A stretch of DNA of 64,000 nt from an uncultured Clostridia bacterium (GCA_947628135.1 CANQYT010000001.1:129285-193284), one strand, 5' to 3'; positions 5,325-61,686 are shown, counted from the stretch's first letter. The notes: generated by a model not told the origin, from the letters alone. Numbers and translations are program-made.

Positions 5325-6062
5325 ATGGTAACGTTGAAAGCGCAAGAAACGATAGAAGATCTTCAATGCGACGGTCTGCGGCTTATACAATCGACAAAGG
5401 AGTACCGCTTCACGACGGACGCGGTGTTGCTTGCCAACTTCTGCAAGGATATGCGCGGCAAACTCTGCGTGGAGTTCGGCGCGGGCAGCGGCGTTGTGAG
5501 TATACTCGTCGCCCGCAAAAAACACCCCAAGCGTGTAGTGGCATTGGAAATTCAGCCGCAACTTGCCGATATGATGAAGCGCAGCGTACAACTCAACGGA
5601 CAGCAGGACGTTGTCGAAGTGTACGTTGCCGACCTCAAAGACGCCTGTCGGTACGTAAAGGACGCCGACGTCGTGGTGTGCAACCCTCCCTATCGCAAGG
5701 TGGGCAGCGGCGAGCGGCAACAGCAAAGCAACATCGCGCTGTGCCGTCACGAGATAGCGGCGACCCTTTCGGACGTCATCGTCAGCGCTTCCGCGGTACT
5801 CAACAATCGCGGCAGTTTGTATCTGGTACATCAGGCGAGCCGCCTTTGCGAGATAGTGACTTTGTGCCGCGACAGCGCACTTGCCGTAAAGGAGATACTG
5901 CCCGTATGTCCCACGCCCTCGCGCCCGCCGAATCTGGTGCTGATACGCGCGGTAAAGGGCGGCGCGGCGGATTGCAAACTGCTTTCTCCGCTGTACGTCA
6001 CGGACGAAGCGGGCAACTACACGAAGCAGGCGTCCGCTTGGTACGGCTTAGCGGACAATTGA
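5325..6062 (+). CDS. SAM-dependent methyltransferase, tRNA (adenine-N6) TrmN6/YabB-like
   Basis: 245 aa. SAM-binding motif VEFGAGSG and catalytic NPPY (VVCNPPYRK). Sits upstream of rsmI, as yabB does in Bacillus. Confidence 0.75.
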   Translation: MVTLKAQETIEDLQCDGLRLIQSTKEYRFTTDAVLLANFCKDMRGKLCVEFGAGSGVVSILVARKKHPKRVVALEIQPQLADMMKRSVQLNGQQDVVEVYVADLKDACRYVKDADVVVCNPPYRKVGSGERQQQSNIALCRHEIAATLSDVIVSASAVLNNRGSLYLVHQASRLCEIVTLCRDSALAVKEILPVCPTPSRPPNLVLIRAVKGGAADCKLLSPLYVTDEAGNYTKQASAWYGLADN

Positions 6063-33653: not shown

Positions 33654-33655
33654 AT

Positions 33656-33968
33656 TTTCCGACCACACGTGCGGCGGTCGATTGCTTGCTACTGCGTAAC
33701 GCTTGCGCAATCGACGGTTAAATAGACAACATTTACAAAACCGACTTCCTCGTCCGAAGTCGGTTTCTTTTTATACAGTGAGTAACATTATCCTGTGCGC
33801 TAACGCGCCGCCGCAGTCGGACTTGGGAGTGGTGCAGGAAACCTGCACGGTCGGATAAACCTTTCGCCGGGGTCTCCCATACCCCCGGCATCCCCGGGGA
33901 GGACGCAAAGCTTCGGTACACGCCCGAACTTTGCGGAGTTTGGTTGAAACTTTCCGACCACACGTGCG
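33656..33968. repeat. 18-nt perfect direct repeats (TTTCCGACCACACGTGCG) bracketing a 277-bp segment
   Basis: Copies at 33656-33673 and 33951-33968 (period 295 bp). The enclosed segment holds a terminator hairpin and, at 33863-33899 on the minus strand, a 37-nt GC-rich motif also present at 41309-41345. Confidence 0.8.
33741..33772 (+). terminator. rho-independent terminator downstream of smpB
   Basis: Hairpin CCGACTTC-ctcgtcc-GAAGTCGG followed by TTTCTTTTT. Confidence 0.75.
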
Positions 33969-34039
33969 ACAAGTCGTATCGGGTATTCGGTGAAAAAAGG
34001 CTTCACTTCGTGTGCCGCACCTAACAGGGTGCGGCACAC

Positions 34040-35095
34040 TTGTTGCAGATTATTCACATCAACTTGCAACTCAAAAAAGACCTTCCCCGTCACGGGTAAG
34101 CCGTTACGGGGAAGGGGGACTGCGCTCCGCGCGGTGGAAGAGGGATACTCGAAATCAACAATATCCATATTTTTCTCCTTACTCTCTACAACTTTGTCCG
34201 CAGGAAACTTATATTGTATCGCAATCGACCTTATTAACCTTCCCCGTCACGGGTAAGCCGTTACGGGGAAGGTGTCGCCCGACGGGCGACGGAAGAGGGG
34301 TTCTTTGAAACCAACTTACTTCTTTGCCCCCCCCCCTCTTTCGTCTGCTACGCAGCCACCTTCCCCGAAAGTCGCGCTTGCGCTGTTGACTGTCGGGGAA
34401 GGTCTGTTGCTAAACTGCACTTATGACTGCAAATACAGTGTGTTTTTGAGACGTTGTTTTTGTTATCGGTAAAATTGACAAAACAAGTGTAATTTGTTTT
34501 TTCTCTCACTCTGTCTACAACAACTTACATTAAACACTTTCCAACTTGTCTATATTCTTTTTCTCTCACCCCGTCCGCAGGATACCCACATCAACTCGCA
34601 ACTCAAAAAAAACCGTCCCCGTCAATTACGCACCGCGGAATTTACGGGGAAGGTGTCGCCCGACGGGCGACGGAAGAGGGTTTTATTGAAACCAACTTTT
34701 TTGCCCCCTCTTTCGTCTGCTACGCAGCCACCTTCCCCGAAAGTCGCGCTTGCGCTGTTGACTGTCGGGGAAGGTCTGTTGCCGAATTGCACTTATGACT
34801 GTAAATACAAGTGTGTTTTTGAGACGTTGTTTTTGTTATCAGTTGAATATACAAAACGGTGTAATTTGTTTTCTCTCACCCCGTCCGCAGGAAACCCACA
34901 TCAACTCGCAACTCAAAAAAAACCGTCCCCGTCAATTACGCATAGCGGAATTTACGGGGACGGGGGACTGCGCTCCGCGCGGTGGAAGAGGGCTTTTCCG
35001 AACCCAACTGTTTTTATCTCCAAGTCGGCGCGGCGCGCCCCGCAGGGGGCGGTAAGCCCAATGTCCAAAGTCGGGACGCAAAAACAAGTTTTTAC
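34040..35095 (+). repeat. modular hairpin-repeat array A (4 units)
   Basis: Heads GTCCGCAGGA(A/T)AC at 34196, 34573 and 34883, plus a head-less first unit. The hairpin CC(G/T)TCCCCGT...ACGGGGA(A/C)GG occurs 4 times. Two units carry the long second hairpin CCTTCCCCGAAAGTCGCGCTTGCGCTGTTGACTGTCGGGGAAGG. No plausible CDS. Confidence 0.9.
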
Positions 35096-35100
35096 ACTAT

Positions 35101-35616
35101 TTATAGAGTATTCGCCTCAACATTTGACATAGAGCCATTTTGTTTGCGCATAGTTTTCACCGCAACGGCGGACAGCGCCAGCACAGTTGCGATCAGCGCA
35201 ATGTTCACGGCGGGTACTACCGCAAACAAAGCCGAAATCTCAACCAACAGGAAACTGTACACGCTGTAAACAGTCACAAGCGCAGCGGAAATGCAAACCA
35301 CCACAAGGCACGCAACTATTGCGCCGTACTTCTTGCCGTTGCAAAGCAGTACTATCCACACGACGGCAAGCGCAATGGCGGGTGGCAACGCCGTGAAGAA
35401 CCACAACACAACGATAACCATCGCGCCCAAAACCTGTCCCAACGCCTCGCCCAGTTCCTCCGAGGTCGTTGTTTCCGTCTCGCTTGGGGCGGTCTCGGTT
35501 TGCGAGCCGTTGCTCGCCGATATGAGCGCAGGCGTAATCACAAACGAAGCCAACAGCCACACGATGAGTATCGGCAGCAAAATTTTCAAAGCCGTTACAG
35601 AACGTAAGTTTTTCAT
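35101..35616 (-). CDS. hypothetical integral membrane protein
   Basis: 171 aa. Signal/TM at the N-terminus, a T/E-rich linker, then three or four TM helices. Confidence 0.55.
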   Translation of the reverse strand: MKNLRSVTALKILLPILIVWLLASFVITPALISASNGSQTETAPSETETTTSEELGEALGQVLGAMVIVVLWFFTALPPAIALAVVWIVLLCNGKKYGAIVACLVVVCISAALVTVYSVYSFLLVEISALFAVVPAVNIALIATVLALSAVAVKTMRKQNGSMSNVEANTL

Positions 35617-35699
35617 ATCTACCTCCGCAAAAATGTTGTAACGTTGCCGAGTTTAGCACTTTTTATGTGCAAAGTCAACACCTTTCGTCAAAATATTTT

Positions 35700-36353
35700 T
35701 TACTGCTTGTCTTGCTCGTCCCTTTCGCTTTGCGTTTCGCCGTCCCTTTCGGCAATCATTTTGCGCAGTTTGCTTGCGTGGTAGTAGCAGTTGCAGCGGC
35801 TCAGTCCCAACTGCTCGCTCACCTGCGCAATGGTCAACTTGTCCGCAAAGTACAGCGCAAACACCTGTACAAACTGTTCTGAGTAGCGGCTTTGCGGACG
35901 TCCGAAACGCACCCCGCGCAGTTTTGCGGAGGCAATGCCCTCTTTCTGCCGTTGGCGTATGTTTTGCCGTTCGTTTTCCGCCACAAAGGACAGCACCTGC
36001 AACACCACGTCGGAAATAAACTTTCCCATCAGGTTGTCCGTTCTTTCCCTTGTGTCCAACACAGGCATATCCAGCACCGCAATGTCCGCGCCTATTTCCC
36101 GAGTAATCGCTTTCCATTCTTCTATTATCGCGTCGTAATTTCTTCCCAACCTGTCAATGGACTTTATCACCAGCAAATCGTCCTTTTTCAGCACGGCAAG
36201 CAGTCGTGCGTACTGTTCCCGTTCGAAGTCTTTTCCGCTTTGCTTGTCCACAAAGACGTTTTGTTCGTCAATTCCCATCTGCGCAAATGCGTCCAACTGC
36301 CTCGCCACACACTGATCCTGCGAGGAGACCCTCGCGTAAGCATACATCGTCAT
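35700..36353 (-). CDS. serine recombinase, resolvase/invertase (Hin/Gin/Tn3-resolvase) type
   Basis: 217 aa. N-terminal catalytic domain YAYARVSSQDQ (catalytic Ser), LLVIKSIDRLGRN, ENERQNIRQRQKEGI, and a C-terminal HTH (LTIAQVSEQLGLSRCNCYY). Confidence 0.9.
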   Translation of the reverse strand: MTMYAYARVSSQDQCVARQLDAFAQMGIDEQNVFVDKQSGKDFEREQYARLLAVLKKDDLLVIKSIDRLGRNYDAIIEEWKAITREIGADIAVLDMPVLDTRERTDNLMGKFISDVVLQVLSFVAENERQNIRQRQKEGIASAKLRGVRFGRPQSRYSEQFVQVFALYFADKLTIAQVSEQLGLSRCNCYYHASKLRKMIAERDGETQSERDEQDKQ

Positions 36354-36494
36354 AATTGTACTTTTATCCTCCTTGATTTTGTTTTGACGAATTTCTCGCC
36401 GCTTTCGGCAAGTTGATATCTATTTTAGCCAAATTTTCCGAGATTTCAAACCGTGTTGTCGAAAAAAACGAAAAATTGAAAAAAAATTTCAAAA

Positions 36495-36514
36495 AAAAGT
36501 AGGATTTAACTAAC
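36495..36514. repeat. left inverted repeat of the candidate invertible promoter segment
   Basis: AAAAGTAGGATTTAACTAAC. The reverse complement of 36668-36687 is AAAAGTAGGATTTTCCTAAC. That is 18/20 matching, with a 13-bp perfect core. Confidence 0.6.
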
Positions 36515-36556
36515 TTTGACGAAACGTCGTATTTTTTTGCTCGTTTCAACGTCATA

Positions 36557-36577
36557 CCTGCCGTGAGGCGGGTTTTT
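36557..36577 (+). terminator. small plus-strand terminator inside the candidate invertible segment
   Basis: Hairpin CCTGCC-gtga-GGCGGG followed by TTTTT. The reverse strand has no T run after the hairpin, so it is unidirectional. Confidence 0.5.
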
Positions 36578-36630
36578 GCGGGCTTTTCGCCGCGCTTTGT
36601 GCCGTTGCAAAGCGAGTTTGCAATACATCT

Positions 36631-36659
36631 GTTATACACCAATCGATTTTCTTTGTCAA
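36631..36659 (-). promoter_or_regulatory. near-consensus sigma-A promoter on the minus strand inside the candidate invertible segment
   Basis: Reverse strand reads TTGACA (36659-36654), a 17-nt spacer, then TATAAC (36636-36631). It currently fires toward the recombinase gene and away from the 36725 operon. Confidence 0.6.
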
Positions 36660-36667
36660 TGATTTTT

Positions 36668-36687
36668 GTTAGGAAAATCCTACTTTT
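36668..36687. repeat. right inverted repeat of the candidate invertible promoter segment
   Basis: GTTAGGAAAATCCTACTTTT, the partner of 36495-36514. It ends 37 nt before the ATG at 36725. Confidence 0.6.
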
Positions 36688-36724
36688 ACTAACACTCGGA
36701 CGGCACGTAGAAAAGGGGGTAAAT

Positions 36725-38302
36725 ATGCGTGATATAACGCTGACAAACGGCGGCAAACGCCGTGCAATATTGGCAGTTTTTGTTGCGGTAGCGTTGCTCG
36801 GCGCGGCTTTTGCGTTGTTTTTTGCGCCTGCGGCAAATGCCGCCCGCAGTGATACGGATTGGGTAACTGTGGGCGAAACTGTGCTTGCCCGCTCCTCCGA
36901 CGGCACAACCAAGTTCAACAAAAATTCGCTGGAAGCGCTGTACGGCTATCTCACCGCAGAGGGGACGTACTCGTCCGTTGCCGCTGCGGCACAGTCGGGC
37001 AAAACTTCCGCCGATTTCCGCACCCTCAACGGCGGAAAAAACGTTTCCGTCTATTTCGGCGGTTTCGAGTGGGACGTAGTGTACCTCACCACGGCGCAGA
37101 ACGGCGGTGGCAACACCAATAAAGGCGACGTCATTCTCGACTTGTGGCGTTCGGTGGACGATAATATGACTTATGCCAAAGACGCTGTTATACACTTCAA
37201 TGCCCCTATGTCTAATACAACCGTTAGGTATCCATCGATGTTGTATTCTGTGTATTATTCGCGCGTGGTGGGGTTAAATATCGGCGGGGCTTATAATTCC
37301 ACTAGTAGAGGGAGCTCTTTGGATTATGTAAATCAAGACGCCAATCATCAGTACGCCCGCTTTACTATGACCGAAGATCAGGGCGTATCGGGCAGTTTGA
37401 CGCAGTTCATTGCCACGCCCGTGCAGGTAGGCTATCAAGAACACGAGTGGGACGAAGCAACGTCCAACGCAATTAATTCGAACAAATATTATTGCCCCAA
37501 CGACGCCTACGGAGTTCCGGAAGTCGGTGGACAATGGATACGTAATGAGTTTAATTTACTTGAACGAGGTGATGATGAAGAACGTCCGGCAGTGGCAAAA
37601 TACGACGCTTGGAAGAACGACTATCTTTGGTTGGCTTCTATTTCTGAAACGGGTTTTGAGGATGACGTTGGCAACGGTATTTGGGATACTGATGTCTCTC
37701 TTCGGAGTTCTATTGAACTAAAAAGTTCTCGTCTGTCGACAAAAATAACTTTGTTACGCTCTCACAAAGGCGATACTCGTAGTGGGGGTTATTTTAGTAC
37801 ACTCGACGAGTCTGGTAACCAAGGAACTTTGACTGGTACCAGCAACGGTGTCGTTCGCCCCGCATTGCACCTCAATCTCACCCAAGCCAACGACAATTCG
37901 GAAGAGCCGTCGTTGTCCTACACGTTTGAATTGCCCGACTCGGTGGAATTTGCCGTCCAAGACGGGGTTGCAACTGCAACTATCAACGTCACGGCGAGCG
38001 ACATATACGTCCCCGCGGGCAAAACTCTCACGCTCTATGTAAAAGACAACGAAGGTCTACTCGAAAACACATTTTACCTTTGGAACGGCGGTACTAAGAA
38101 GGAGTACACCCTTTCCGCCTCGGGAGGGAACGCCGTCGAAAACGGTGCATTCGACCCCCTCTACGGCAAGATGATTTGGCAGTTGTCGAACGACAAAACT
38201 ATTGCTTCCGAAACGTTTACTATCACGCTTACCCTTGTCTCGTCTCCCACACGTGCGGGCACTTGGCAGGACGCGCTGACATTCACCGCTGTGGTCACTT
38301 AG
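36725..38302 (+). CDS. secreted large protein of unknown function (distant DUF6273-like features)
   Basis: Met 55 of ORF 36563..38302, preceded by AAAAGGGGG. Signal peptide RRAILAVFVAVALLGAAFALFFAPAANAA. Motifs FGGFEWDVVYL, DYLWLASISE and ITLLRS loosely echo the 13031 protein. Confidence 0.6.
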   Translation: MRDITLTNGGKRRAILAVFVAVALLGAAFALFFAPAANAARSDTDWVTVGETVLARSSDGTTKFNKNSLEALYGYLTAEGTYSSVAAAAQSGKTSADFRTLNGGKNVSVYFGGFEWDVVYLTTAQNGGGNTNKGDVILDLWRSVDDNMTYAKDAVIHFNAPMSNTTVRYPSMLYSVYYSRVVGLNIGGAYNSTSRGSSLDYVNQDANHQYARFTMTEDQGVSGSLTQFIATPVQVGYQEHEWDEATSNAINSNKYYCPNDAYGVPEVGGQWIRNEFNLLERGDDEERPAVAKYDAWKNDYLWLASISETGFEDDVGNGIWDTDVSLRSSIELKSSRLSTKITLLRSHKGDTRSGGYFSTLDESGNQGTLTGTSNGVVRPALHLNLTQANDNSEEPSLSYTFELPDSVEFAVQDGVATATINVTASDIYVPAGKTLTLYVKDNEGLLENTFYLWNGGTKKEYTLSASGGNAVENGAFDPLYGKMIWQLSNDKTIASETFTITLTLVSSPTRAGTWQDALTFTAVVT

Positions 38303-38346
38303 CGCCGCGCTGAGTTTTTGGGAATTGCAACAAGGAGACAAACACA

Positions 38347-38874
38347 ATGAACTTCGATTCTAAACGTGACAAAAAACTTCTGCTGACGGTAATTGCGTTG
38401 TTGCTGTTGGCTATGCTAACCGATCTACTTCTGTGCGTCTTGATGCTGGGCTACAAGCCGAGCGGAGACGTCACTTCCTCCTCCGGTGGCGGCGGCATTG
38501 GGTTCGACCCCGACGTTTCGGACGAACGTCCGGGCACGGTTACGCAAACGCAAAGCGTATCCGTGGCGGGTTTCTCGAAACTTACAATGCCGCCCGACGC
38601 CGACACAATTGCAATAGATTTGTACAACCCCGAGGAAAACTTCGGCTTGTACTATCTGACGTTTGAGTTGCGCTTGCGCCTTGACAACGGCGAATACGAA
38701 ACGCTGTACAAGTCCGGCTTGGTGGGCGCAGGCAAACACATCTATCAGATAACCCTTTCCCACGCGCTTAGCGCGGGCGAGTACTCGGGAGAGTTGTTTA
38801 TTCAGCCCTACCGTATGTCCGATATGTCCCCCACAAACACCGTGACGGGCAACCTGACGATAATAGTTAAGTGA
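38347..38874 (+). CDS. membrane-anchored extracellular protein, unknown function
   Basis: 175 aa. N-terminal TM (LLLTVIALLLLAMLTDLLLCVLML), a G/S linker, then a beta-rich domain. Confidence 0.55.
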   Translation: MNFDSKRDKKLLLTVIALLLLAMLTDLLLCVLMLGYKPSGDVTSSSGGGGIGFDPDVSDERPGTVTQTQSVSVAGFSKLTMPPDADTIAIDLYNPEENFGLYYLTFELRLRLDNGEYETLYKSGLVGAGKHIYQITLSHALSAGEYSGELFIQPYRMSDMSPTNTVTGNLTIIVK

Positions 38875-38925
38875 TGAATACGAGTAGGTCTCGTGTTTAT
38901 AAAAAAATATGGAGGTAACAAAACA

Positions 38926-39462
38926 ATGACAAAGACAATGACAAAGACCGCTTTGATAGTTTTCGCGGCAGTGTTGGTGCTGGCTGCGGTGTGCGTTGCA
39001 TTCGCTTGCACGGGCACGGCAAATGCGGCTGGACTCGCCAGCGATGGCAGTAACACCGGCTCGGTACAGGTGACGTACAGTGTTGAGGGCGGTTGGGCAG
39101 TAACAATTACCGACGGACCGATCAACCTTAAACCCGACCAAGAACAAACCATCACCGTAGAAGTGACCAAAGCCGTTTTGGGTGACGGTGAAACACTTTC
39201 GATAACGATCGAAAGCGAACACGACTACAAACTTGTACACGGCAGCGACTCTTTGGCTTACACCGTAAAGAAAGGCGCAACAACTTTCAGCTCAAGCGAA
39301 AAGACCGTTCTTGAAAATATCGACGGTACAACCGACCTTTCCGCAAACGGCAAAGCGGACTTGACAGTCAAACTTGAACAAGCCACCGCAAGCCAAGCCA
39401 AGTACGAAGGCGCGTACACCGACACGCTCAACTTCACGGTAAACACGAACGGCGGCGACTAA
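38926..39462 (+). CDS. secreted beta-rich protein, unknown function (pilin/WxL-like C-terminal strand)
   Basis: Met 12 of ORF 38893..39462, preceded by GGAGG. Signal peptide ending TANAAG. The C-terminus YEGAYTDTLNFTV resembles terminal strands of surface-fibre or WxL-type proteins. Resemblance only. Confidence 0.55.
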   Translation: MTKTMTKTALIVFAAVLVLAAVCVAFACTGTANAAGLASDGSNTGSVQVTYSVEGGWAVTITDGPINLKPDQEQTITVEVTKAVLGDGETLSITIESEHDYKLVHGSDSLAYTVKKGATTFSSSEKTVLENIDGTTDLSANGKADLTVKLEQATASQAKYEGAYTDTLNFTVNTNGGD

Positions 39463-39555
39463 CAAATTTCGTCTGGCGGTAGCGGTGCGCTTTGCCCGCT
39501 GCCGTCAAACGGCGTTGCGGTACAACAAATCAATGCAAAGGTAGGAGTAAAAATT

Positions 39556-40410
39556 ATGCTTGGCATTTTGGCAGATTCCATTTTCGGCACGCACGTAGAT
39601 TCCATTGCGGACATTCTGTTTTGGATAGTTTTGGCACAGGTGTTGCTTTTTGCCGCCGTGGAGGTGTGCATAGTAATTTTGTTACGCCGACCGAAAGACG
39701 CCGACCAATCGACCGAACAGCGCTCTCCCGAGCAGTCGCCCGCACCGAGCGGCGACGTTGCGGCGAGCGTTGCGGCGGAGCAGGTAGCCGCAGAGCAAGT
39801 AGTTTCGGAGCAGATTTCCGCAGAGCAGGTTGCGCCTCAGCAACAAGAGGCGGCGCAGCCCGCCCCCATCCTTGTTGACACGGCGGACTCTCACGAAGCG
39901 GGCGTCTTGCGCTACGACAAAAGTTTTGTGGCGCGTCTGATACAGTCGGACGATTGGCTCAAAGACCGTTACAACGTGTTGAAGAACGAACTTTTGAGTT
40001 ACAAAGGCGTAAAATGCCGTTACAATTGGAAGCGCGAAACTTTCAAAGCGGGCAAAAAGTACGTTGCTCGTCTGTTGTTCCGCGGCAAAACGCTGTGCGT
40101 TCTGTATCCGCTCGACCCCGAGACATATCCTGCCGACAGCGCATATCGCGCGGAAGCGGTAAACGCTCCCACGTTGACGGACACGCCGTCTATGTATCGC
40201 ATACGCAACGAAAAGCACTTCAAAGTGGCGCTTGCCCTGCTAAACGCGACGGCGAGGGAACTCGGGCTGACCCGTACCGCCCGTATCCCCGAGGACTACT
40301 ATATGCCCTACGAGGGTACTTTGCAACTCATAGAGCGCGGCTTGGTAAAGAGAAAAATCAAGTCCGCGAGCGAAGAGGCGATTTTCACGCGCAAAAACGG
40401 CGACGATTGA
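39556..40410 (+). CDS. membrane-anchored protein with an AEQV-repeat linker and a conserved C-terminal domain of unknown function
   Basis: 284 aa. N-terminal TM, a low-complexity repeat AAEQVAAEQVVSEQISAEQVAPQQQ, then a globular part (YDKSFVARLIQS...GKTLCVLYPLDP). Confidence 0.55.
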   Translation: MLGILADSIFGTHVDSIADILFWIVLAQVLLFAAVEVCIVILLRRPKDADQSTEQRSPEQSPAPSGDVAASVAAEQVAAEQVVSEQISAEQVAPQQQEAAQPAPILVDTADSHEAGVLRYDKSFVARLIQSDDWLKDRYNVLKNELLSYKGVKCRYNWKRETFKAGKKYVARLLFRGKTLCVLYPLDPETYPADSAYRAEAVNAPTLTDTPSMYRIRNEKHFKVALALLNATARELGLTRTARIPEDYYMPYEGTLQLIERGLVKRKIKSASEEAIFTRKNGDD

Positions 40411-40463
40411 CGGGCACGGCAGAGATCTGCACCCCGCCGTGGTACAACCATTTCAGCAAAAAA

Positions 40464-40499
40464 CAGCGCTTTCCACCTTGGAACGCGCCGTTTTTTTTT
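40464..40499 (+). terminator. rho-independent terminator closing the 36725-40410 operon
   Basis: Hairpin CAGCGCTTTCCA-cc-TTGGAACGCGCCG followed by T9. Confidence 0.75.
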
Positions 40500-40514
40500 G
40501 CCATTTGACTATTC

Positions 40515-41110
40515 TGTACGTGCCCTGTCCGCAGGAAACTCGCATTGTACTGCAACAAAACAACCTTCCCCGTCACGGGTAAGCCGTTACGGGGAAGGTG
40601 TCGCCCGACGGGCGACGGAAGAGGGGCTTTTCCGAAACCAACTCAATCCCTCGCCCCTCTTTCGTCTGCTACGCAGCCGCCTTCCCCGAAAGTCGCGCTT
40701 GCGCTGTTGACTGTCGGGGAAGGTCTGTTGCAGAATTGCACTTATGACTGTAAATACAGTATTGTTTTGAAACGTTATTTTTTTACTTTCTTTTTTAACT
40801 TTTCATCTATCAAATTTATTTACAATGTTCTGATTACCTTTTTTTGACCGCTTGTTTGTGTAGTTGTTTTTTATGTAAAAATTGTCTATATTATTTTTCT
40901 CCCACCCCGTCCGTAGGAAATTCACATCAAACAATTACAAACTTGTTCATTTTTTCTTTCACATTGTCCGCAGGAAACCCACATTGTATTGTGACAATAA
41001 AAACCGTCCCCGTCACGGGTAAGCCGTTACGGGGAAGGTGTCGCCCGACGGGCGACGGAAGAGGGGTTGTTGAACCCGACTGTTTTTATCTCCAAGTCGG
41101 CGCGGCGCGC
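40515..41110 (+). repeat. modular hairpin-repeat array B (3 units)
   Basis: Heads at 40527 (exact), 40909 (GTCCGTAGGAAA variant) and 40966 (exact). Unit 1 shares a 63-nt identical block and a 77/78 block with array A unit 1. Same orientation as array A. Confidence 0.9.
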
Positions 41111-41490
41111 CCCGCAGGGGTCGGTTGCAAGGAACGCCGTCAACCGAACCGACTTGCGTTTGGTCGGAACACACTTGCGTTTAATCGGAACATCATTACA
41201 AAATAAAATAGGAATTTGAGTGAGCGCAGGGCGTGTGGACACAACGCACAAGCGGAAAAAACTCAAATTCCGTCTGCAATCGGCGACAGGCGCGGCGATT
41301 GCAGCCCACCCCGGGGATGTCGGGGGTAGGGGAGACCCCGACGAAGTGTAAAAAAAAGAAGGCGCGTGCAGCGACTTCCTCAGTAGCCCGACCAAGTCGG
41401 CGCGGCGCGCCCCGTAGGGGTCGGTTGCAAGGAACGCCGTCAACCGAACCGACTTGCGTTTGGTCGGAATATACTTGCGTTTGGTCGGAA
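41092..41490 (+). repeat. 300-bp-period tandem duplication (about 1.3 copies) abutting the typA stop codon
   Basis: A ~99-nt block CCAAGTCGGCGCGGCGCGCCCCG(C/T)AGGGGTCGGTTGCAAGGAACGCCGTCAACCGAACCGACTTGCGTTTGGTCGGAA... starts at 41092 and again at 41392. It includes an internal 23-nt repeat, ACTTGCGTTT(GG/AA)TCGGAA. The 37-nt GC-rich motif sits between the copies at 41309-41345. Confidence 0.85.
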
Positions 41491-41491
41491 C

Positions 41492-56064: not shown

Positions 56065-57495
56065 ATGAGAAACACAGCAAAATTATTAGTTATTTTGTTA
56101 GTATTTGGTGCGTGTTTCGGTATATTTGCGGCTTGTGAGCCCAAGCCCGACCACGAACATACGTGGGTAAACGGTGTTTGCACTCAATGCGACGCAGAGT
56201 ACGAACTTGTGGACTATGTTTCCCAACTCAAATTGGACGAAAACTCCTCCACAGAAAAGACCGCTCCCGGCGGCGCCGAACTTGTCCGTATGTATATCGA
56301 CGGAGACACAACGCACTTCAACGTTCCCGTAACCGACAAGCATCCCGAGGGCGTGCTTAAAGCGCGTTACCTTGCGGTAAACACGCCCGAGTCCACCGGT
56401 CAGGTAGAGCCTTACGGTAAGGTTGCGTCCAACTTTACCAAAAAGACCCTTCAAGACGCAATCGCAAACGGCGGCAAGGTTCTTGTTGAGTCCGACTCTG
56501 ACGAGTGGGAAAACGACAGTTACGGCAGAACGACCGCCTGGGTGTGGTACCAACCCGAGGCAAACGCCGATTGGCGCAACCTCAATCTCGAATTGTTGCA
56601 AAAGGGTCTCGGTTTCGGTTCTTCCGTAAGCGAAAACCGCTACGGTGAGACCTGCCTTGCGGCAGTAGAGCAGGCAATGCGGGCAAAACTTATTGTCCAC
56701 TCCGGCGTCAAGGACGAAAACTACTACTACGGTCAGGCACAGGAGATCACCATCAAAGAACTCCGCACCAACTTTGAAGAGTACGAACTTGTCAAGGTTG
56801 CTTTCGATGGATATGTTACCGCAAGTTATGACGGCACCAGTTACGTTCAGCAGTACGACGAAGAAGATGGTATTTGGTACGGCATTTCCGTGTTCTACAA
56901 CGGATCCGGTTCCGACATCAAAAAGGCACTTGCCGTTGGCAGTCACGTCCGCGTGGTAGGTACCGCCCAAGACTTCAACGGCACCTGGCAGGTTTCCGGC
57001 TTGTCCTACAACATCATCAACACCAAGGATCCCGCAAACACATTCAAGTTGGATGACGAAATACACGATATCGACCCTGTGGTGTTGACGATCGCTCAGT
57101 TCAATGCCAACAGAACGGTAGATGTAATTGACCACACTGCTGAAAGCGATGAAATCGTGTATGTTCCCAAGACCTATCCGCTGCATACTTTGTTGGTAGG
57201 CACTCGGGTCAAAATGGTGGACCTTATCGTAGATCACACTTACACAACACCTTCCGGCACAAGCAAGGACGCCTTCACTTTGTACTGCAAGGATAGCAGC
57301 GGCAATGAAATAACCGTTCGCACAGAGGTGCTTAACAAATGGAACGAAGAAACTCAACGTTACGAACTCGTTACCGCGGATGAATTCGAATGCAAAACGA
57401 TCACCGTTATCGGTATTGTCGATTGGTACAACTACGACAATCACAACGAATATCAGCTCCGCGTTGTCGACTACAACGACTTGATTCAAGCCTGA
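56065..57495 (+). CDS. secreted lipoprotein with a staphylococcal-nuclease (thermonuclease) domain and a C-terminal OB-like region
   Basis: 476 aa. Lipobox FAAC. SNase motifs IDGDTTHF, RYLAVNTPES, PYGKVASNFTKK, DSYGRTTAWVW and ELLQKGLG. Confidence 0.8.
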   Translation: MRNTAKLLVILLVFGACFGIFAACEPKPDHEHTWVNGVCTQCDAEYELVDYVSQLKLDENSSTEKTAPGGAELVRMYIDGDTTHFNVPVTDKHPEGVLKARYLAVNTPESTGQVEPYGKVASNFTKKTLQDAIANGGKVLVESDSDEWENDSYGRTTAWVWYQPEANADWRNLNLELLQKGLGFGSSVSENRYGETCLAAVEQAMRAKLIVHSGVKDENYYYGQAQEITIKELRTNFEEYELVKVAFDGYVTASYDGTSYVQQYDEEDGIWYGISVFYNGSGSDIKKALAVGSHVRVVGTAQDFNGTWQVSGLSYNIINTKDPANTFKLDDEIHDIDPVVLTIAQFNANRTVDVIDHTAESDEIVYVPKTYPLHTLLVGTRVKMVDLIVDHTYTTPSGTSKDAFTLYCKDSSGNEITVRTEVLNKWNEETQRYELVTADEFECKTITVIGIVDWYNYDNHNEYQLRVVDYNDLIQA

Positions 57496-57548
57496 AAAAC
57501 AAGTATAAAAAACGCAACAGACTTAAAAATAATAAAAAGGAGAGTATT

Positions 57549-58970
57549 ATGAAGAAAAAAATTGCATTGTTGCTTGCAGCAGTAATGGTTGTGGCAACTT
57601 TCGGAATGGTTCTTGCCGCTTGCGGGCTTTCCGACGAATCGATCCAGGCTCTTTACACTGAAATGAGCAGGTATCACCGCAACGACAAAGTCAATACCGA
57701 AGAAAACTACACCTTGATCGGACACATTACCACGATCACCGACGACGGCGAAGTGGATGCTTATGTTCGCTGGACATCCAGTTCCGACAAGGTGGTCATT
57801 TCCTCCGAAATGAACAACGCGGGTTTCTACACGGTTACTATTCCCGATCGTACTACCTTGACGGAGGATATCAACTACACTATTACGGGTACGCTTGTTG
57901 ACGCCGACGGAAAGGAGTACAAGGACGCTGACGGCAACCCCTACTCGGTTACACTCAATCGTGTCGTTCCCAAGTACACCTCTGAACTTGACATTGTAGA
58001 CACCCTCACCACGGGCAACTACAAGATCCTTATGCGTGATGAAACCAACGACAAGATTTGGTATGCCAAAGGAGAAATTTACGGTGGCTACTACCTTGCA
58101 ATAACCGAAGACAAAACCGAAGCCGCCGTTTTCACAATTACCGTAGATAACGGTAGCTACGCAATTCAAGTTAACGGCAAGTATCTCGAAGCCTACAAGG
58201 TTTACAATAGCAGCAAGGATAGATATTATGTAGACTTGCGCTTGGTCTCCACCCCCTCCACATCTGATGACCTGCTCACTCTCACTTGGGATACCGAACA
58301 CAAAACATTCTATGTTGATCTCAACGGAACAAACTATTTCCTTGGTGTAAACTACCAAAGCGGCACGACCACTCTGTACAGAGAGGCTATCGGTGCTTCC
58401 GACGCGAGATATGTTGACAGTGCAAACAACTTCCCCATTCATTTTGTTACAACGACCGACCAACCTGATGGCAGCGTTGACCAAGGTACCAAGTACGGCA
58501 TCAAGCAAGCGACCGAACTCCAAGTCGGCACCGACTACTACCTTGGTTTGTACAACACTCAGGTTAGCACCTGGTACTTCTTTACCGGTGTAATGGGCGG
58601 TTACAATAACTTCTACTTTGCCACCTCTGACAACAAGGACGAGGCAGCGGCAGTAGTTTTGGAATCGCACGAAGACGGCTACTACATCAAGGTCAAGAGT
58701 AGCGGCAAGTATTTGACTCTCGGACCTCGCAGCGGTGACTACACCAAGAGTACTTTGAGCCTTGAAGATACAGCGTCTACCGTTTGGAAGTACGACGAAA
58801 CGACTAAGTGCTTTACTACCGAGTTGACAAATGGTGAAAATACCTACAAATTCTACCTTGGCAACTACGGTGCAAACGTAGATTTAAGCGGACTTGCTCG
58901 TTTTGATAGTGGCAACTATCCCGCTTTGTTAGGTGAGATTGTTACTGCAAGCGAAGCTAAAACGGCATAA
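57549..58970 (+). CDS. lipoprotein of unknown function
   Basis: Met 54 of ORF 57390..58970, preceded by AAAGGAGAG. Lipobox LAAC. Beta-rich with internally similar halves (YYLAITEDKTEAAVFTI and FYFATSDNKDEAAAVVL). Confidence 0.7.
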   Translation: MKKKIALLLAAVMVVATFGMVLAACGLSDESIQALYTEMSRYHRNDKVNTEENYTLIGHITTITDDGEVDAYVRWTSSSDKVVISSEMNNAGFYTVTIPDRTTLTEDINYTITGTLVDADGKEYKDADGNPYSVTLNRVVPKYTSELDIVDTLTTGNYKILMRDETNDKIWYAKGEIYGGYYLAITEDKTEAAVFTITVDNGSYAIQVNGKYLEAYKVYNSSKDRYYVDLRLVSTPSTSDDLLTLTWDTEHKTFYVDLNGTNYFLGVNYQSGTTTLYREAIGASDARYVDSANNFPIHFVTTTDQPDGSVDQGTKYGIKQATELQVGTDYYLGLYNTQVSTWYFFTGVMGGYNNFYFATSDNKDEAAAVVLESHEDGYYIKVKSSGKYLTLGPRSGDYTKSTLSLEDTASTVWKYDETTKCFTTELTNGENTYKFYLGNYGANVDLSGLARFDSGNYPALLGEIVTASEAKTA

Positions 58971-59124
58971 CCTAAACCTCAACAGAAGAAGTTGACGATG
59001 TCGCAAATCGGATACCTGCAAGGTCGGTTTGTTCTGATTCAACAATGGACAATGGCTGTATCTTACGGGACTATGAGCGGCAACGCAAGCGGGCAAAGCC
59101 GACGTAAACTTCAATCAAAACAAA

Positions 59125-59156
59125 ACACCCGAGGATTTCCCCTCGGGTGTTTTCTT
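59125..59156 (+). terminator. rho-independent terminator preceding array C
   Basis: Hairpin ACACCCGAGG-atttcc-CCTCGGGTGT followed by TTTCTTT. Confidence 0.8.
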
Positions 59157-59189: not shown

Positions 59190-61412
59190 TATTTTCTATT
59201 TTTCTTCCTGTCCGCAGGAAACATATATTGTATCGCAACCATTAAAACAACCGTCCCCGTCAATTACGCATAGCGGAATTTACGGGGAAGGGGGACTGCG
59301 CTCCGCGCGGTGGAAGAGGGGGTTTCCGAAATGATTTGTATACCCTTTAACAACCCGCTACGTCGGACGTGGTGGAAGAGGTTTTTTCCGAAACCCTATT
59401 ATTTTTCACACCGCGACATCGGAGATGGCTTTTCGAAATTTGTATATTCTCTGCCAACCCGCTACTTTCGACTTCCCTCTCACCCTGTCCGCAGGAAATA
59501 AATTTTGCACGGCGATGAAAGACCTTCCCCGTCACGTATGAATTTCTCCAATATGTATTTTTGCTATCACCTGTTCTAAATGTCTGTATTTTTTATTTCC
59601 CCTGTCCGCAGGAAACGTATATTGTATCGCAATCATTAAAACAACCGTCCCCGTCACGGGTAAGCCGTTACGGGGAAGGTGTCGCCCGACGGGCGACGGA
59701 AGAGGGTTTCTCCGAAATCAACTCACTCCCTTGCCCCTCTTTCGTCTGCTACGCAGCCACCTTCCCCGAAAGTCGCGCTTGCGCTGTTGACTGTCGGGGA
59801 AGGTCTGTTGCTCGATTGCACCTATGACCGTAAACACAGTGTGTCTTTGAGTAGTTGTTTTTGTTGTCAGTTAAATTCACCAAACGAGTTAGTTTGTTTT
59901 CTCACACTTTGTCCGTAGAAAATGCAAATCACCCGCAAAAAATTTGTATATTCCATATTTCATTTCTCTCCCTGTCCGCAGGAAATAAATTTTGCACGGC
60001 GATGAAAGACCGTCCCCGTCACGTGTGAATTTCTCCAATATGTATTTTTGCTATCACCTGTTCTCAATGTCTGTATTTTTTTTACCCCTGTCCGCAGGAA
60101 ACGTATATTGTATCGCAACTATTAAAACAACCGTCCCCGTCACGGGTAAGCCGTTACGGGGAAGGTGTCGCCCAACGGGCGACGGAAGAGGGTTTCTCCG
60201 AAACCAACTCATTCCTTTGCCCCCTCTTTCGTCTGCTACGCAGCCACCTTCCCCGAAAGTCGCGCTTGCGCTGTTGACTGTCGGGGAAGGTCTGTTGCTA
60301 AATTGCACTTATGACTGCAAATACAGTGTGTTTTTGAAACGTTGTTTTTTTGTTATCGGTAAAATACACAATGCAAGTGTAATTTGTTTTTTCTCACTCT
60401 GTCCGCAGGAAATAAATTATGCACGGCGATGAAAGACCGTCCCCGTCACGTGTGAATTTCTCCAATATGTATTTTTGCTATCACCTGTTCTCAATGTCTG
60501 TATTTTTTTTACCCCTGTCCGCAGGAAACGTATATTGTATCGCAACCATTAAAACGACCGTCCCCGTCACGGGTAAGCCGTTACGGGGAAGGTGTCGCCC
60601 AACGGGCGACGGAAGAGGGTTTGTTGAAATGATTTGTATACCCTTTAACAACCCGCTACATCGGACGTGGTGGAAGAGGGTTTTCCCGAAACTATTTTTA
60701 TTTTTCACACCGCGACATCGGAGAGGGCTTTTCGAAATTTGTATATTCTCTGCCAACCCGCTACTTTCGACTTCCCTCTCACCCTGTCCGCAGGAAATAA
60801 ATTTTGCACGGCGATGAAAGACCGTCCCCGTCACGGGTAAGCCGTTACGGGGAAGGTGTCGCCCAACGGGCGACGGAAGAGGGTTTCTCCGACGCCAACT
60901 CACTCTCTTGCACCCTCTTTCGTCTGCTACGCAGCCACCTTCCCCGAAAGTCGCGCTTGCGCTATTGACTGTCGGGGAAGGTCTGTTGCTCGATTGTACC
61001 TATGACAGTAAATAAAGTATGCTTTTGAAACGTTGTTTTTGTTATCAGTTAAATACACAAAGCAAGTGTAATTTGTTTTCTCTCCCTGTCCGTAGGAAAC
61101 GTATATTGTATCGCAACCATTAAAACAACCTTCCCCGTCACGGGTAAGCCGTTACGGGGACGGGGGACTGCGCTCCGCGCGGTGGAAGAGGGTTTGTTGA
61201 AATGATTTGTATACTCTTTAACAACCCGCTACATCGGACGTGGTGGAAGAGGGTTTTCCCGAAACCATTTTTATTTTTCACACCGCGACGTCGGAGAGGG
61301 CTTTTCGAAATTTGTATATTCTCTGCCAACCGCGCTGTCTAACGAGGTGGAAGAGGGGTTAATTGAAACCGACTCACTCCCTCGACCCCATCTTTTGTCT
61401 GTCGAAATGCCC
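59190..61412 (+). repeat. modular hairpin-repeat array C (9 units plus one degenerate head)
   Basis: Heads at 59210, 59487, 59604, 59974, 60090, 60401, 60517 and 60786 (exact GTCCGCAGGAAA), at 61088 (GTCCGTAGGAAA), and a degenerate one at 59911. Short (~115 nt) and long (~270-370 nt) units alternate. No RBS-led ORFs. Confidence 0.92.
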
Positions 61413-61449
61413 CTCAACTCGCGCGTTTGCGCGATTGAGTGCGTTTTTT
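61413..61449 (+). terminator. rho-independent terminator closing array C
   Basis: Hairpin CTCAACTCGCGC-gttt-GCGCGATTGAG followed by tgcgTTTTTT. Confidence 0.75.
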
Positions 61450-61686
61450 CTTTTCAAAAACCGCCTTTTTTGCAATTTTTACCCCCATTTGCGCAAAAAG
61501 TTTAGAATAACTAATCAAAACGTTTGACATTACTTAACCATTGCTATATACTGTCATTGTTGCCCGTGGCAAACAAATTTATTTTCGTATATGCAAGCGG
61601 TCGTGCTTGCGCCGTGAGATACGGCGGTACTGTAAATAACTTGTTGGTTGCCGTCGGGTATTTTTTTGTATCGGGAGGTGTCGATA

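Follow-up and report, generated by a model that had tools for sequence, protein, structure and literature searches.

The 64,000-nt stretch of uncultured Clostridia DNA analysed here (the window; positions are counted from its first letter) carries two arrays of one repeat family, A and B, on either side of six genes that stand between smpB and typA (Table 1). An earlier note on this DNA had suggested that the arrays may mark the ends of a composite mobile unit, and that the 5.4-kb block between them may be an island that can be excised or is polymorphic in the population. We come to another reading, which we consider reasonably probable: arrays A and B are clusters of a lineage-specific, high-copy family of hairpin repeats resembling the REPIN and BIME elements and are not the termini of an island, while the genes between them make up a secreted-protein operon with an invertase switch of its own.

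The sequence likeness between the two arrays is real. The identity of 63 nt (34238-34300 and 40564-40626) was found again and extends to a maximal identical block of 65 nt (34236-34300 and 40562-40626); the block CCCCTCTTTCG...GGTCTGTTGC indeed matches at 77 of 78 positions (34333-34410 against 40654-40731); and every repeat copy of A and B lies on the plus strand, so that their direct orientation stands as well. By codon statistics the six genes in between are real. Chance is excluded as a source of the repeats, because the 31-nt hairpin core has nine matches in the window against 0.00 expected from 100 shuffles. The 41-nt tail CTGTTTTTATCTCCAAGTCGGCGCGGCGCGCCCCGCAGGGG that had been assigned to the ends of both arrays is exact and occurs exactly twice (35008 and 41080), but it reads better as the trailer of the convergent minus-strand genes than as part of the array. 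The T motif within it recurs in the equivalent position after typA (41092 and 41392), and a related motif in plus orientation is present after smpB (33805-33826). Since the motif is thus found behind the 171-aa gene, behind typA and, in related form and in the other orientation, behind smpB, it is better read as a trailer of convergent genes.

The core module of the family measures 65-73 nt and is composed of an outer stem enclosing a variable inner hairpin, a second hairpin (hairpin 2), and the invariant linker GGAAGAGG. The outer stem of 10 bp (CCKTCCCCGT/ACGGGGAAGG) is unvarying across species. The inner hairpin is known in 21 sequence variants and hairpin 2 in 16, and nearly all 37 fold; the loops of hairpin 2 often are of the GNNA or CUUG type, and the short single-stranded motifs between the variable hairpins are conserved across species. 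With a covariance model, and counting as strong only those copies with a core-module match above 48 bits, we obtained 53 copies in the 218 kb sampled, 12 of them in the window (all on the plus strand) and 41 in loci from related metagenome-assembled genomes (MAGs), there on both strands. In the alignment of these 53 copies, which leans towards structure because it was fitted to the covariance model, 94% of the cells hold standard pairs, a share that falls to 41-66% if the partners are shifted; in hairpin 2, four of six pairs show changes on both sides, and seven of the ten pairs of the outer stem never vary. A full unit in the window runs from a P box (GTCCGCAGGAAAC) through the core module, a CU-rich loop closed by GGAAGAGGG/CCCTCTTTC, and a right arm to an AT-rich spacer. 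The right arms (CCCTCTTTC-hairpin-ACCTTCCCCG...CGGGGAAGGT) give weak matches to the model on the minus strand (34 bits), which show them to be degenerate inverted copies of the core module. Copies in the MAG loci typically come as inverted doublets about 25 nt apart (L026, L030, L036, L041, L043, and L046); it is the second arm of such a doublet that is degenerate in the window.

The family extends well beyond the two arrays. A third array, C, which had escaped the first reading of the DNA, is situated 18 kb further downstream at about 59190-61450, where a gene for a secreted protein and one for an ABC transporter flank it. With ca. 2.3 kb it is the largest of the three, and it holds extra module types (e.g. 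...ACCCGCTACATCGGACGTGGTGGAAGAGGG...) as well as truncated P-box/hairpin units. A gapped core-module pattern, run over a collection of species-representative genomes, matched 25 loci, all in rabbit-gut MAGs labelled "uncultured Clostridia" (3-4 MAGs): 12 in Lapin-002__bin65, 11 in Lapin-012__bin87, one in bin45, and one probably mis-binned contig. Many of these loci are at contig ends, and each of the two main MAGs has 11-12 of them despite the assembly breaks. The same pattern had no match in the JGI metagenomes or among viral contigs, and a synteny search found neither smpB nor typA nor any of the island genes in the 25 MAG loci. Nor are A and B closest relatives. The long unit of array B is 80.5% identical to the units of array C (core 94-95%) versus 75-76% to those of array A (core 83-90%); B thus being closer to C than to A, A and B are not a special pair. 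Because the family is scattered across the genome and its relatives, the arrays are no mark of island ends. The earlier note had itself named, as one half of what would speak against its proposal, arrays at many other loci, and this is what the third array and the 41 core modules at 25 loci of related MAGs amount to.

Genes in the MAG loci were called with a simple caller based on codon statistics that reproduces the known genes of the window. All 25 pattern hits in these loci lie outside predicted genes, and 18 of the 20 hits that could be scored are placed behind a gene with the same orientation, the exceptions being L032 and L043. In the window all three arrays follow a plus-strand gene; for array C this co-orientation is less secure, because it rests on a plus-strand open reading frame (ORF) of 526 aa where the codon scorer chose a minus-strand ORF. 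The orientation bias could reflect the direction of transcription or of replication. Each array starts just past the intrinsic terminator of its upstream gene (33738-33766, 40454-40500, and 59122-59153); arrays A and B end with a U-run followed by the T motif, and array C with an intrinsic terminator.

A core module thus pairs with its own inverted degenerate copy and, together with P-box and spacer modules, forms units of 0.3-0.5 kb. Such units pile up head to tail in non-coding DNA at the 3' ends of genes, past the terminator of the upstream gene, in clusters nearly always co-oriented with that gene. From this we propose the following scheme. The six genes would constitute two transcription units with their 3' ends directed outward, into convergent gaps with smpB and typA where the family would accumulate, and the arrays would bracket the six genes because both outward-facing 3' ends open into those gaps. 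The invertase most likely flips the 193-bp promoter segment beside it, and excision of the island by it is unlikely.

That arrays A and B should instead be the ends of an excisable unit, whose deletion or circularisation by RecA or by the recombinase would leave the 5.4-kb island polymorphic, we consider improbable. Their identical and nearly identical blocks are long enough and in direct orientation to serve, in principle, as recombination substrates, and homologous recombination between A and B is possible in principle; its deletions are expected to be rare and none was seen. In the 22 contigs that encode SmpB, TypA or the recombinase we found no empty site, no hybrid array, and no deletion, excision or circle junction. 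All nine independent contigs with the identical recombinase keep the gene order of the island; each island edge that they reach ends in array sequence, three shorter ones stopping inside island genes on one or both sides. Two of the nine, L015 and L016, come from divergent strains and keep the island, with array repeats at both edges. Their surface genes are only 86% identical to ours, and the recombinase side 97.8%, a pattern that suggests diversifying selection or recombination acting on the surface proteins. (Aligned to 35024-40585 of the window, these two contigs give 86-87% for the surface-protein genes and 97-98% for the recombinase side, with 37148-37347 unaligned.)

A comparison of syntenic smpB-typA regions, which had been named beforehand as a check on excision, speaks partly for and partly against it. 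In contig L052, which is from a relative, the same flanks (RNase R, a hypothetical protein and SmpB on one side, TypA and a protein with helix-turn-helix (HTH) and leucine-rich repeat (LRR) parts on the other; SmpB 83%, TypA 90%, HTH-LRR 43% identical) enclose a single gene of the ABC/FtsX type encoding 873 aa, and smpB is followed by a plain terminator. The island is absent from L052, as a polymorphic island would have it, but so are the array, any hybrid array and any module match. With other cargo between the same flanks, the smpB-typA interval evidently is variable between species, which is the part of the polymorphism claim that holds. In the same direction, the relatives with a TypA of 90% identity (L048 and L049) have other neighbours, further relatives differ at typA or at smpB, and the operon is placed in other contexts in L050 and L051. 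A serine recombinase inside the block and two contigs (L003 and L005) that depart from the window near the start of array A could likewise be expected of an excisable island. Against this stand the occurrence of the same family in a third array and at 25 or more other loci, the fact that A and B are not sister copies, the type of the recombinase (see below), and searches of plasmid and phage collections, in which neither the island nor array C had relatives except for the catalytic domain of the recombinase. Nothing indicates that the island was moved by the arrays.

The recombinase is a small serine recombinase of the invertase/resolvase type with inverted-repeat sites of its own. It matches Pfam PF00239 at 3.9e-26, with the catalytic domain at residues 4-148, and its best match is PHROG 125, "DNA invertase" (2e-46, full length). 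It is not an integrase-type enzyme, be it a tyrosine recombinase, a large serine recombinase, or one of the IS607 type with an N-terminal HTH. An IS607-type transposase was rejected for its wrong domain order and a score of 25 bits against a cut-off of 110; for XisF and Ccr the scores were far below the cut-offs. The match to the Mpi family is weak (52.8 bits versus a cut-off of 272).

Between the recombinase gene and the gene of the 525-aa protein there are two inverted repeats of 20 nt, 90% complementary and separated by 153 nt, the right one of which ends 37 nt before the ATG of the 525-aa gene (36725). The segment contains TTGACA-17-TATAAC on the minus strand (36631-36659). A distant homologue of the operon in L051, with a 525-aa protein 42-43% identical and the same four-gene order, has a perfect TTGACA-17-TATAAT at the same place, and the arms of the repeats have changed together: GTAGGAT/ATCCTAC in the window and GTACACT/AGTGTAC in L051 (2155-2320). 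The L051 contig of 6.6 kb has neither recombinase nor arrays. Judged from these sequences, 36495-36687 is a candidate invertible promoter and phase switch for the secreted-protein operon; in all contigs seen the promoter faces the recombinase, an orientation in which the operon would be OFF. Promoter switches worked by serine invertases are known from the Hin/Gin family and from Mpi of Bacteroides. With these our segment shares a small serine recombinase beside an inverted-repeat segment with a consensus promoter, directly upstream of a surface-protein operon; it differs in the weak match to Mpi and in having been seen in one orientation only. The operon proteins carry signal or anchor segments and have no match to a known family, that of the 525-aa protein being represented by only nine clusters in 5.8 billion proteins. 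The arrangement suggests a surface-protein operon, in a gut commensal, whose expression probably is phase-variable. A 15-nt tandem repeat in five copies (39761-39845) encodes a low-complexity stretch of the (A/S)EQV type in the 284-aa protein.

It might also be argued that the repeats have mis-joined contigs and that the island is not truly located between smpB and typA. Short-read contigs without exception are broken within or at the arrays, and in L003 and L005, whose samples also yielded island contigs (L012/L019 and L017), smpB adjoins other genes. Such an assembly artefact is nevertheless very improbable, as the independent contig L012 repeats the succession typA-array B-island at 100% identity, L014 covers the island together with the inner portions of the two arrays (99.97%), smpB is connected with an array of this family in L010, a contig from a 97% strain, L052 shows smpB and typA to be ancestral near-neighbours, and identical proteins are on record on a contig of 225,898 nt.

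Our reading of the arrays draws on the REP, BIME and REPIN elements of Proteobacteria (Bertels & Rainey 2011, PMC3116915; PMC3337134). The family shares with them extragenic, high-copy, lineage-specific imperfect palindromes whose hairpins are kept by compensatory change, inverted doublets with a short spacer, mosaic arrays with linker motifs, and a preference for 3' ends. A number of points weigh against it. The core module of 65-73 nt, with its two hairpins and invariant linkers, exceeds a classical REP of 20-40 nt in length and in complexity, and its 5' end lacks the GTAG conserved in REPs. A weak search for a Y1/RAYT transposase (tblastn with RayT and IS200 TnpA queries) gave nothing below E = 0.8 in 387 kb. 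L003 and L005, at 99.9% identity, leave the path of the window at 33952 and 34054 and continue into other genes. The break of L003 falls at the right border of insert X in the smpB trailer (Table 1), ca. 90 nt before array A starts, and that of L005 is the first base of array A, exactly at the end of its start module S; both breakpoints coincide with repeat-module boundaries, at a coverage of ca. 4x, and the junctions may have arisen by genuine rearrangement at the repeats and not by chimeric assembly. As for the switch, the inverted orientation of the segment is present in none of 11 contigs (the nine recombinase contigs, the TypA contig L012, and the L051 switch), and the inverted-junction pattern has 0 matches in the JGI metagenomes, which seem not to contain this organism. 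The window arrays further differ from REP and REPIN elements in being one-stranded and up to 2.3 kb long, and in their host, an uncultured Clostridia bacterium.

The same DNA could have an added function as RNA. The arrays would then be non-coding RNA genes in tandem or a single long RNA of modular build, transcribed on the plus strand from internal promoters or by read-through, with stable hairpins and CU-rich loops that serve as regulators, protein sponges or 3'-exonuclease barriers. We judge this unlikely, while noting that it overlaps with the reading of the arrays as a hairpin-repeat family. The wobble pairs in the stems of the module (seven G.U versus no A.C) all favour the sense strand, and the GGAAGAGGG/CCCTCTTTC stem has a G.U pair too; yet the units fold about equally well on both strands (z = -6.1 and -5.2). 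The tetraloops of hairpin 2, the conserved single-stranded motifs, the co-orientation of 18 of 20 modules with upstream genes, the plus-strand terminator that ends array C, and the U-runs that end A and B favour an RNA role, whereas the intrinsic terminators after which each array begins, and promoters that could not be confirmed, count against it. The AT-rich spacer does carry a motif TTGARW-N17-20-TWRAAT that recurs in five units, but promoter-like motifs of this sort belong to the repeat itself and show no enrichment relative to shuffled sequence, and promoters spotted by eye upstream of the arrays in L032 and L043 were unconfirmed by a scan.

Rfam gave no family at the gathering threshold in the window and, at permissive E-values, none in the arrays either. 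Arrays of the sister species carry extra modules, one of which is a run of three hairpins separated by GUGAAGU. This module aligns end to end with the Rfam family Gut-1 (RF01706) at three loci of the relatives (L024, 617-696; L033, 4866-4945; L035, 2372-2451 on the minus strand), with 49.4, 46.1, and 37.4 bits and a best E of 1e-8, all below the gathering threshold of 50 bits; the window has no match to Gut-1 even at E <= 1. Gut-1 was proposed as a candidate non-coding RNA and is known only from human gut metagenomes (PMC2864571). The likeness comprises the alignment over the whole model, just under the threshold, and the restriction of both to gut metagenomes; the difference is that Gut-1 was described as a stand-alone RNA, and here the module is part of a larger tandem mosaic. 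By these alignments the repeat family is apparently related to the orphan Gut-1 motif, though the window itself fails Gut-1 membership. The Gut-1 link adds to the points that favour an RNA role, and on a tentative and speculative view the arrays would be long tandem modular multi-hairpin RNAs of a superfamily with Gut-1 as one of its modules, placed at gene ends in a Christensenellales-like uncultured gut lineage, able to function as RNA, either by sponging a protein or by forming a 3'-exonuclease barrier, and spread without a recognisable transposase of the RAYT type.

Other identities tried for the repeats were rejected. A hammerhead-like motif in the modules of the relatives (CUGAUGAG) has a non-canonical core and no Rfam match. 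CRISPR, integron attC sites and iterons are unfitting in anatomy and spacing. A sigma-H or Bacteroidetes-type promoter reading of the P box does not fit, the host being a member of the Clostridia, and for a CsrA sponge the GGA motifs are in stems and not in loops. Among the modular repeats of Firmicutes, the pneumococcal BOX element is built as boxA-boxB(n)-boxC and measures 100-300 nt. Our family resembles BOX and other such repeats in its hairpin-forming boxes of variable number, its intergenic location and its Firmicutes host; unlike BOX it forms kilobase arrays, and there is no sequence similarity. Genomic islands and composite transposons bounded by direct repeats are similar in that repeats flank accessory-looking genes including a recombinase; they differ from our case in that here the repeats stem from a dispersed family and lack a sister relationship, the enzyme is of the invertase type, and no empty site or junction was found.

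Besides correcting an attractive but weakly supported call of a mobile island, the analysis bears on the quality of MAGs and on the reading of synteny, as ca. 6% of the window consists of a family at which all short-read assemblies of the organism break. The orphan Gut-1 motif acquires a genomic context, that of a single module within the tandem mosaic arrays of uncultured gut Clostridia, and biology of the REPIN/BIME kind is extended to a lineage of Firmicutes without an evident RAYT.

Table 1. Features of the repeat arrays, the genes between A and B, and their flanks (positions in the window)
Feature	Position	Strand	Remarks
smpB 3' trailer	33655-33967	+	18-nt direct repeat TTTCCGACCACACGTGCG (33655-33672 and 33950-33967) around insert X of ca. 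280 nt (33673-33949)
Contents of X			smpB terminator 33738-33766; T-like motif 33805-33826; one arm of a 40-nt inverted repeat 33863-33902
Start module S of array A	33999-34053	+	GGCTTCACTTCG, GC hairpin, then CTTGTTGCAGATTATT
Array A	34054-35019	+	Four core modules: 34080-34146, 34237-34301, 34612-34682, 34922-34994
Array A, other parts			Two degenerate inverted right arms 34334-34410 and 34706-34782; three P boxes GTCCGCAGGAWA at 34196, 34573, 34883
Array A, spacers			AT-rich, with TTGAGA-N18-TAAAAT-like motifs at 34446 and 34819
T tail CCAAGTCGGCGCGGCGCGCCCCGCAGGGG...	35020-35060		Best read as minus-strand trailer of the convergent 171-aa gene
Multi-pass membrane protein, 171 aa	35101-35616	-	No family match
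Small serine recombinase, invertase type, 217 aa	35700-36353	-	N-terminal Resolvase domain, C-terminal HTH
Candidate invertible promoter segment	36495-36687 (193 bp)		Left inverted repeat 36495-36514 (AAAAGTAGGATTTAACTAAC); right inverted repeat 36668-36687 (GTTAGGAAAATCCTACTTTT)
Four-gene operon, secreted or membrane-anchored proteins	36725-40410	+	525 aa, 36725-38302; 175 aa, 38347-38874; 178 aa, 38926-39462; 284 aa, 39556-40410
Operon terminator, intrinsic, bidirectional-type	40454-40500	+	-19.7 kcal/mol, z = -4.1; A-tract/stem/U-tract; directly before array B
Array B	40515-41091	+	Two core modules 40563-40627 and 41003-41067; one right arm 40655-40731
Array B, other parts			Three P boxes 40527, 40909, 40966; AT-rich spacer; final U-run 41080-41091
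typA 3' trailer	41092-41491	-	Two 100-nt direct repeats (41092-41191 and 41392-41491; 95% identical) around a 200-nt segment
200-nt segment after typA			Other arm of the 40-nt inverted repeat, 41306-41345; inverted partial copy of X (40-nt core 90% identical)
Array C	59190-61455	+	Six core modules: 59250, 59644, 60130, 60557, 60821, 61128
Array C, other parts			Right arms 59735, 60222, 60913; nine P boxes; terminators at 59122-59153 and about 61412-61455

The flanks of the arrays hold some further elements. Insert X is missing from the strain contig L010, where the TTTCCGACCACACGTGCG repeat is joined straight to array sequence, and X together with its inverted partial copy after typA resembles a second small element, either mobile or duplicating. 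The S module also opens the arrays in L032, L033, and L043. A version of S without the hairpin (GGATTCGCTTCGTTGCAGATT) is located directly after typA in L048 (11850-11875), a relative without arrays, and may represent the module's ancestral form or its target form. In L003, which departs from the window after smpB, the 3' end of a tRNA-Arg(CCG) gene is duplicated ca. 190 nt away from the gene (5520-5545 and 5711-5787) in the manner of an att site.

The genes upstream of array A follow the order pgk-tpi-pgm-secG-rnr-smpB, the classical order in Firmicutes, in which ssrA usually comes next. No tRNA or transfer-messenger RNA (tmRNA) was found adjoining smpB (33654-34040 checked), and neither ARAGORN nor Rfam gave a tmRNA in the whole 64 kb. 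Upstream of array C two long ORFs overlap on opposite strands, 57390-58970 (plus, 526 aa) and 57486-58670 (minus); the codon scorer favoured the latter, and weak Big_6/Ricin-lectin matches favour the 526-aa protein on the plus strand.

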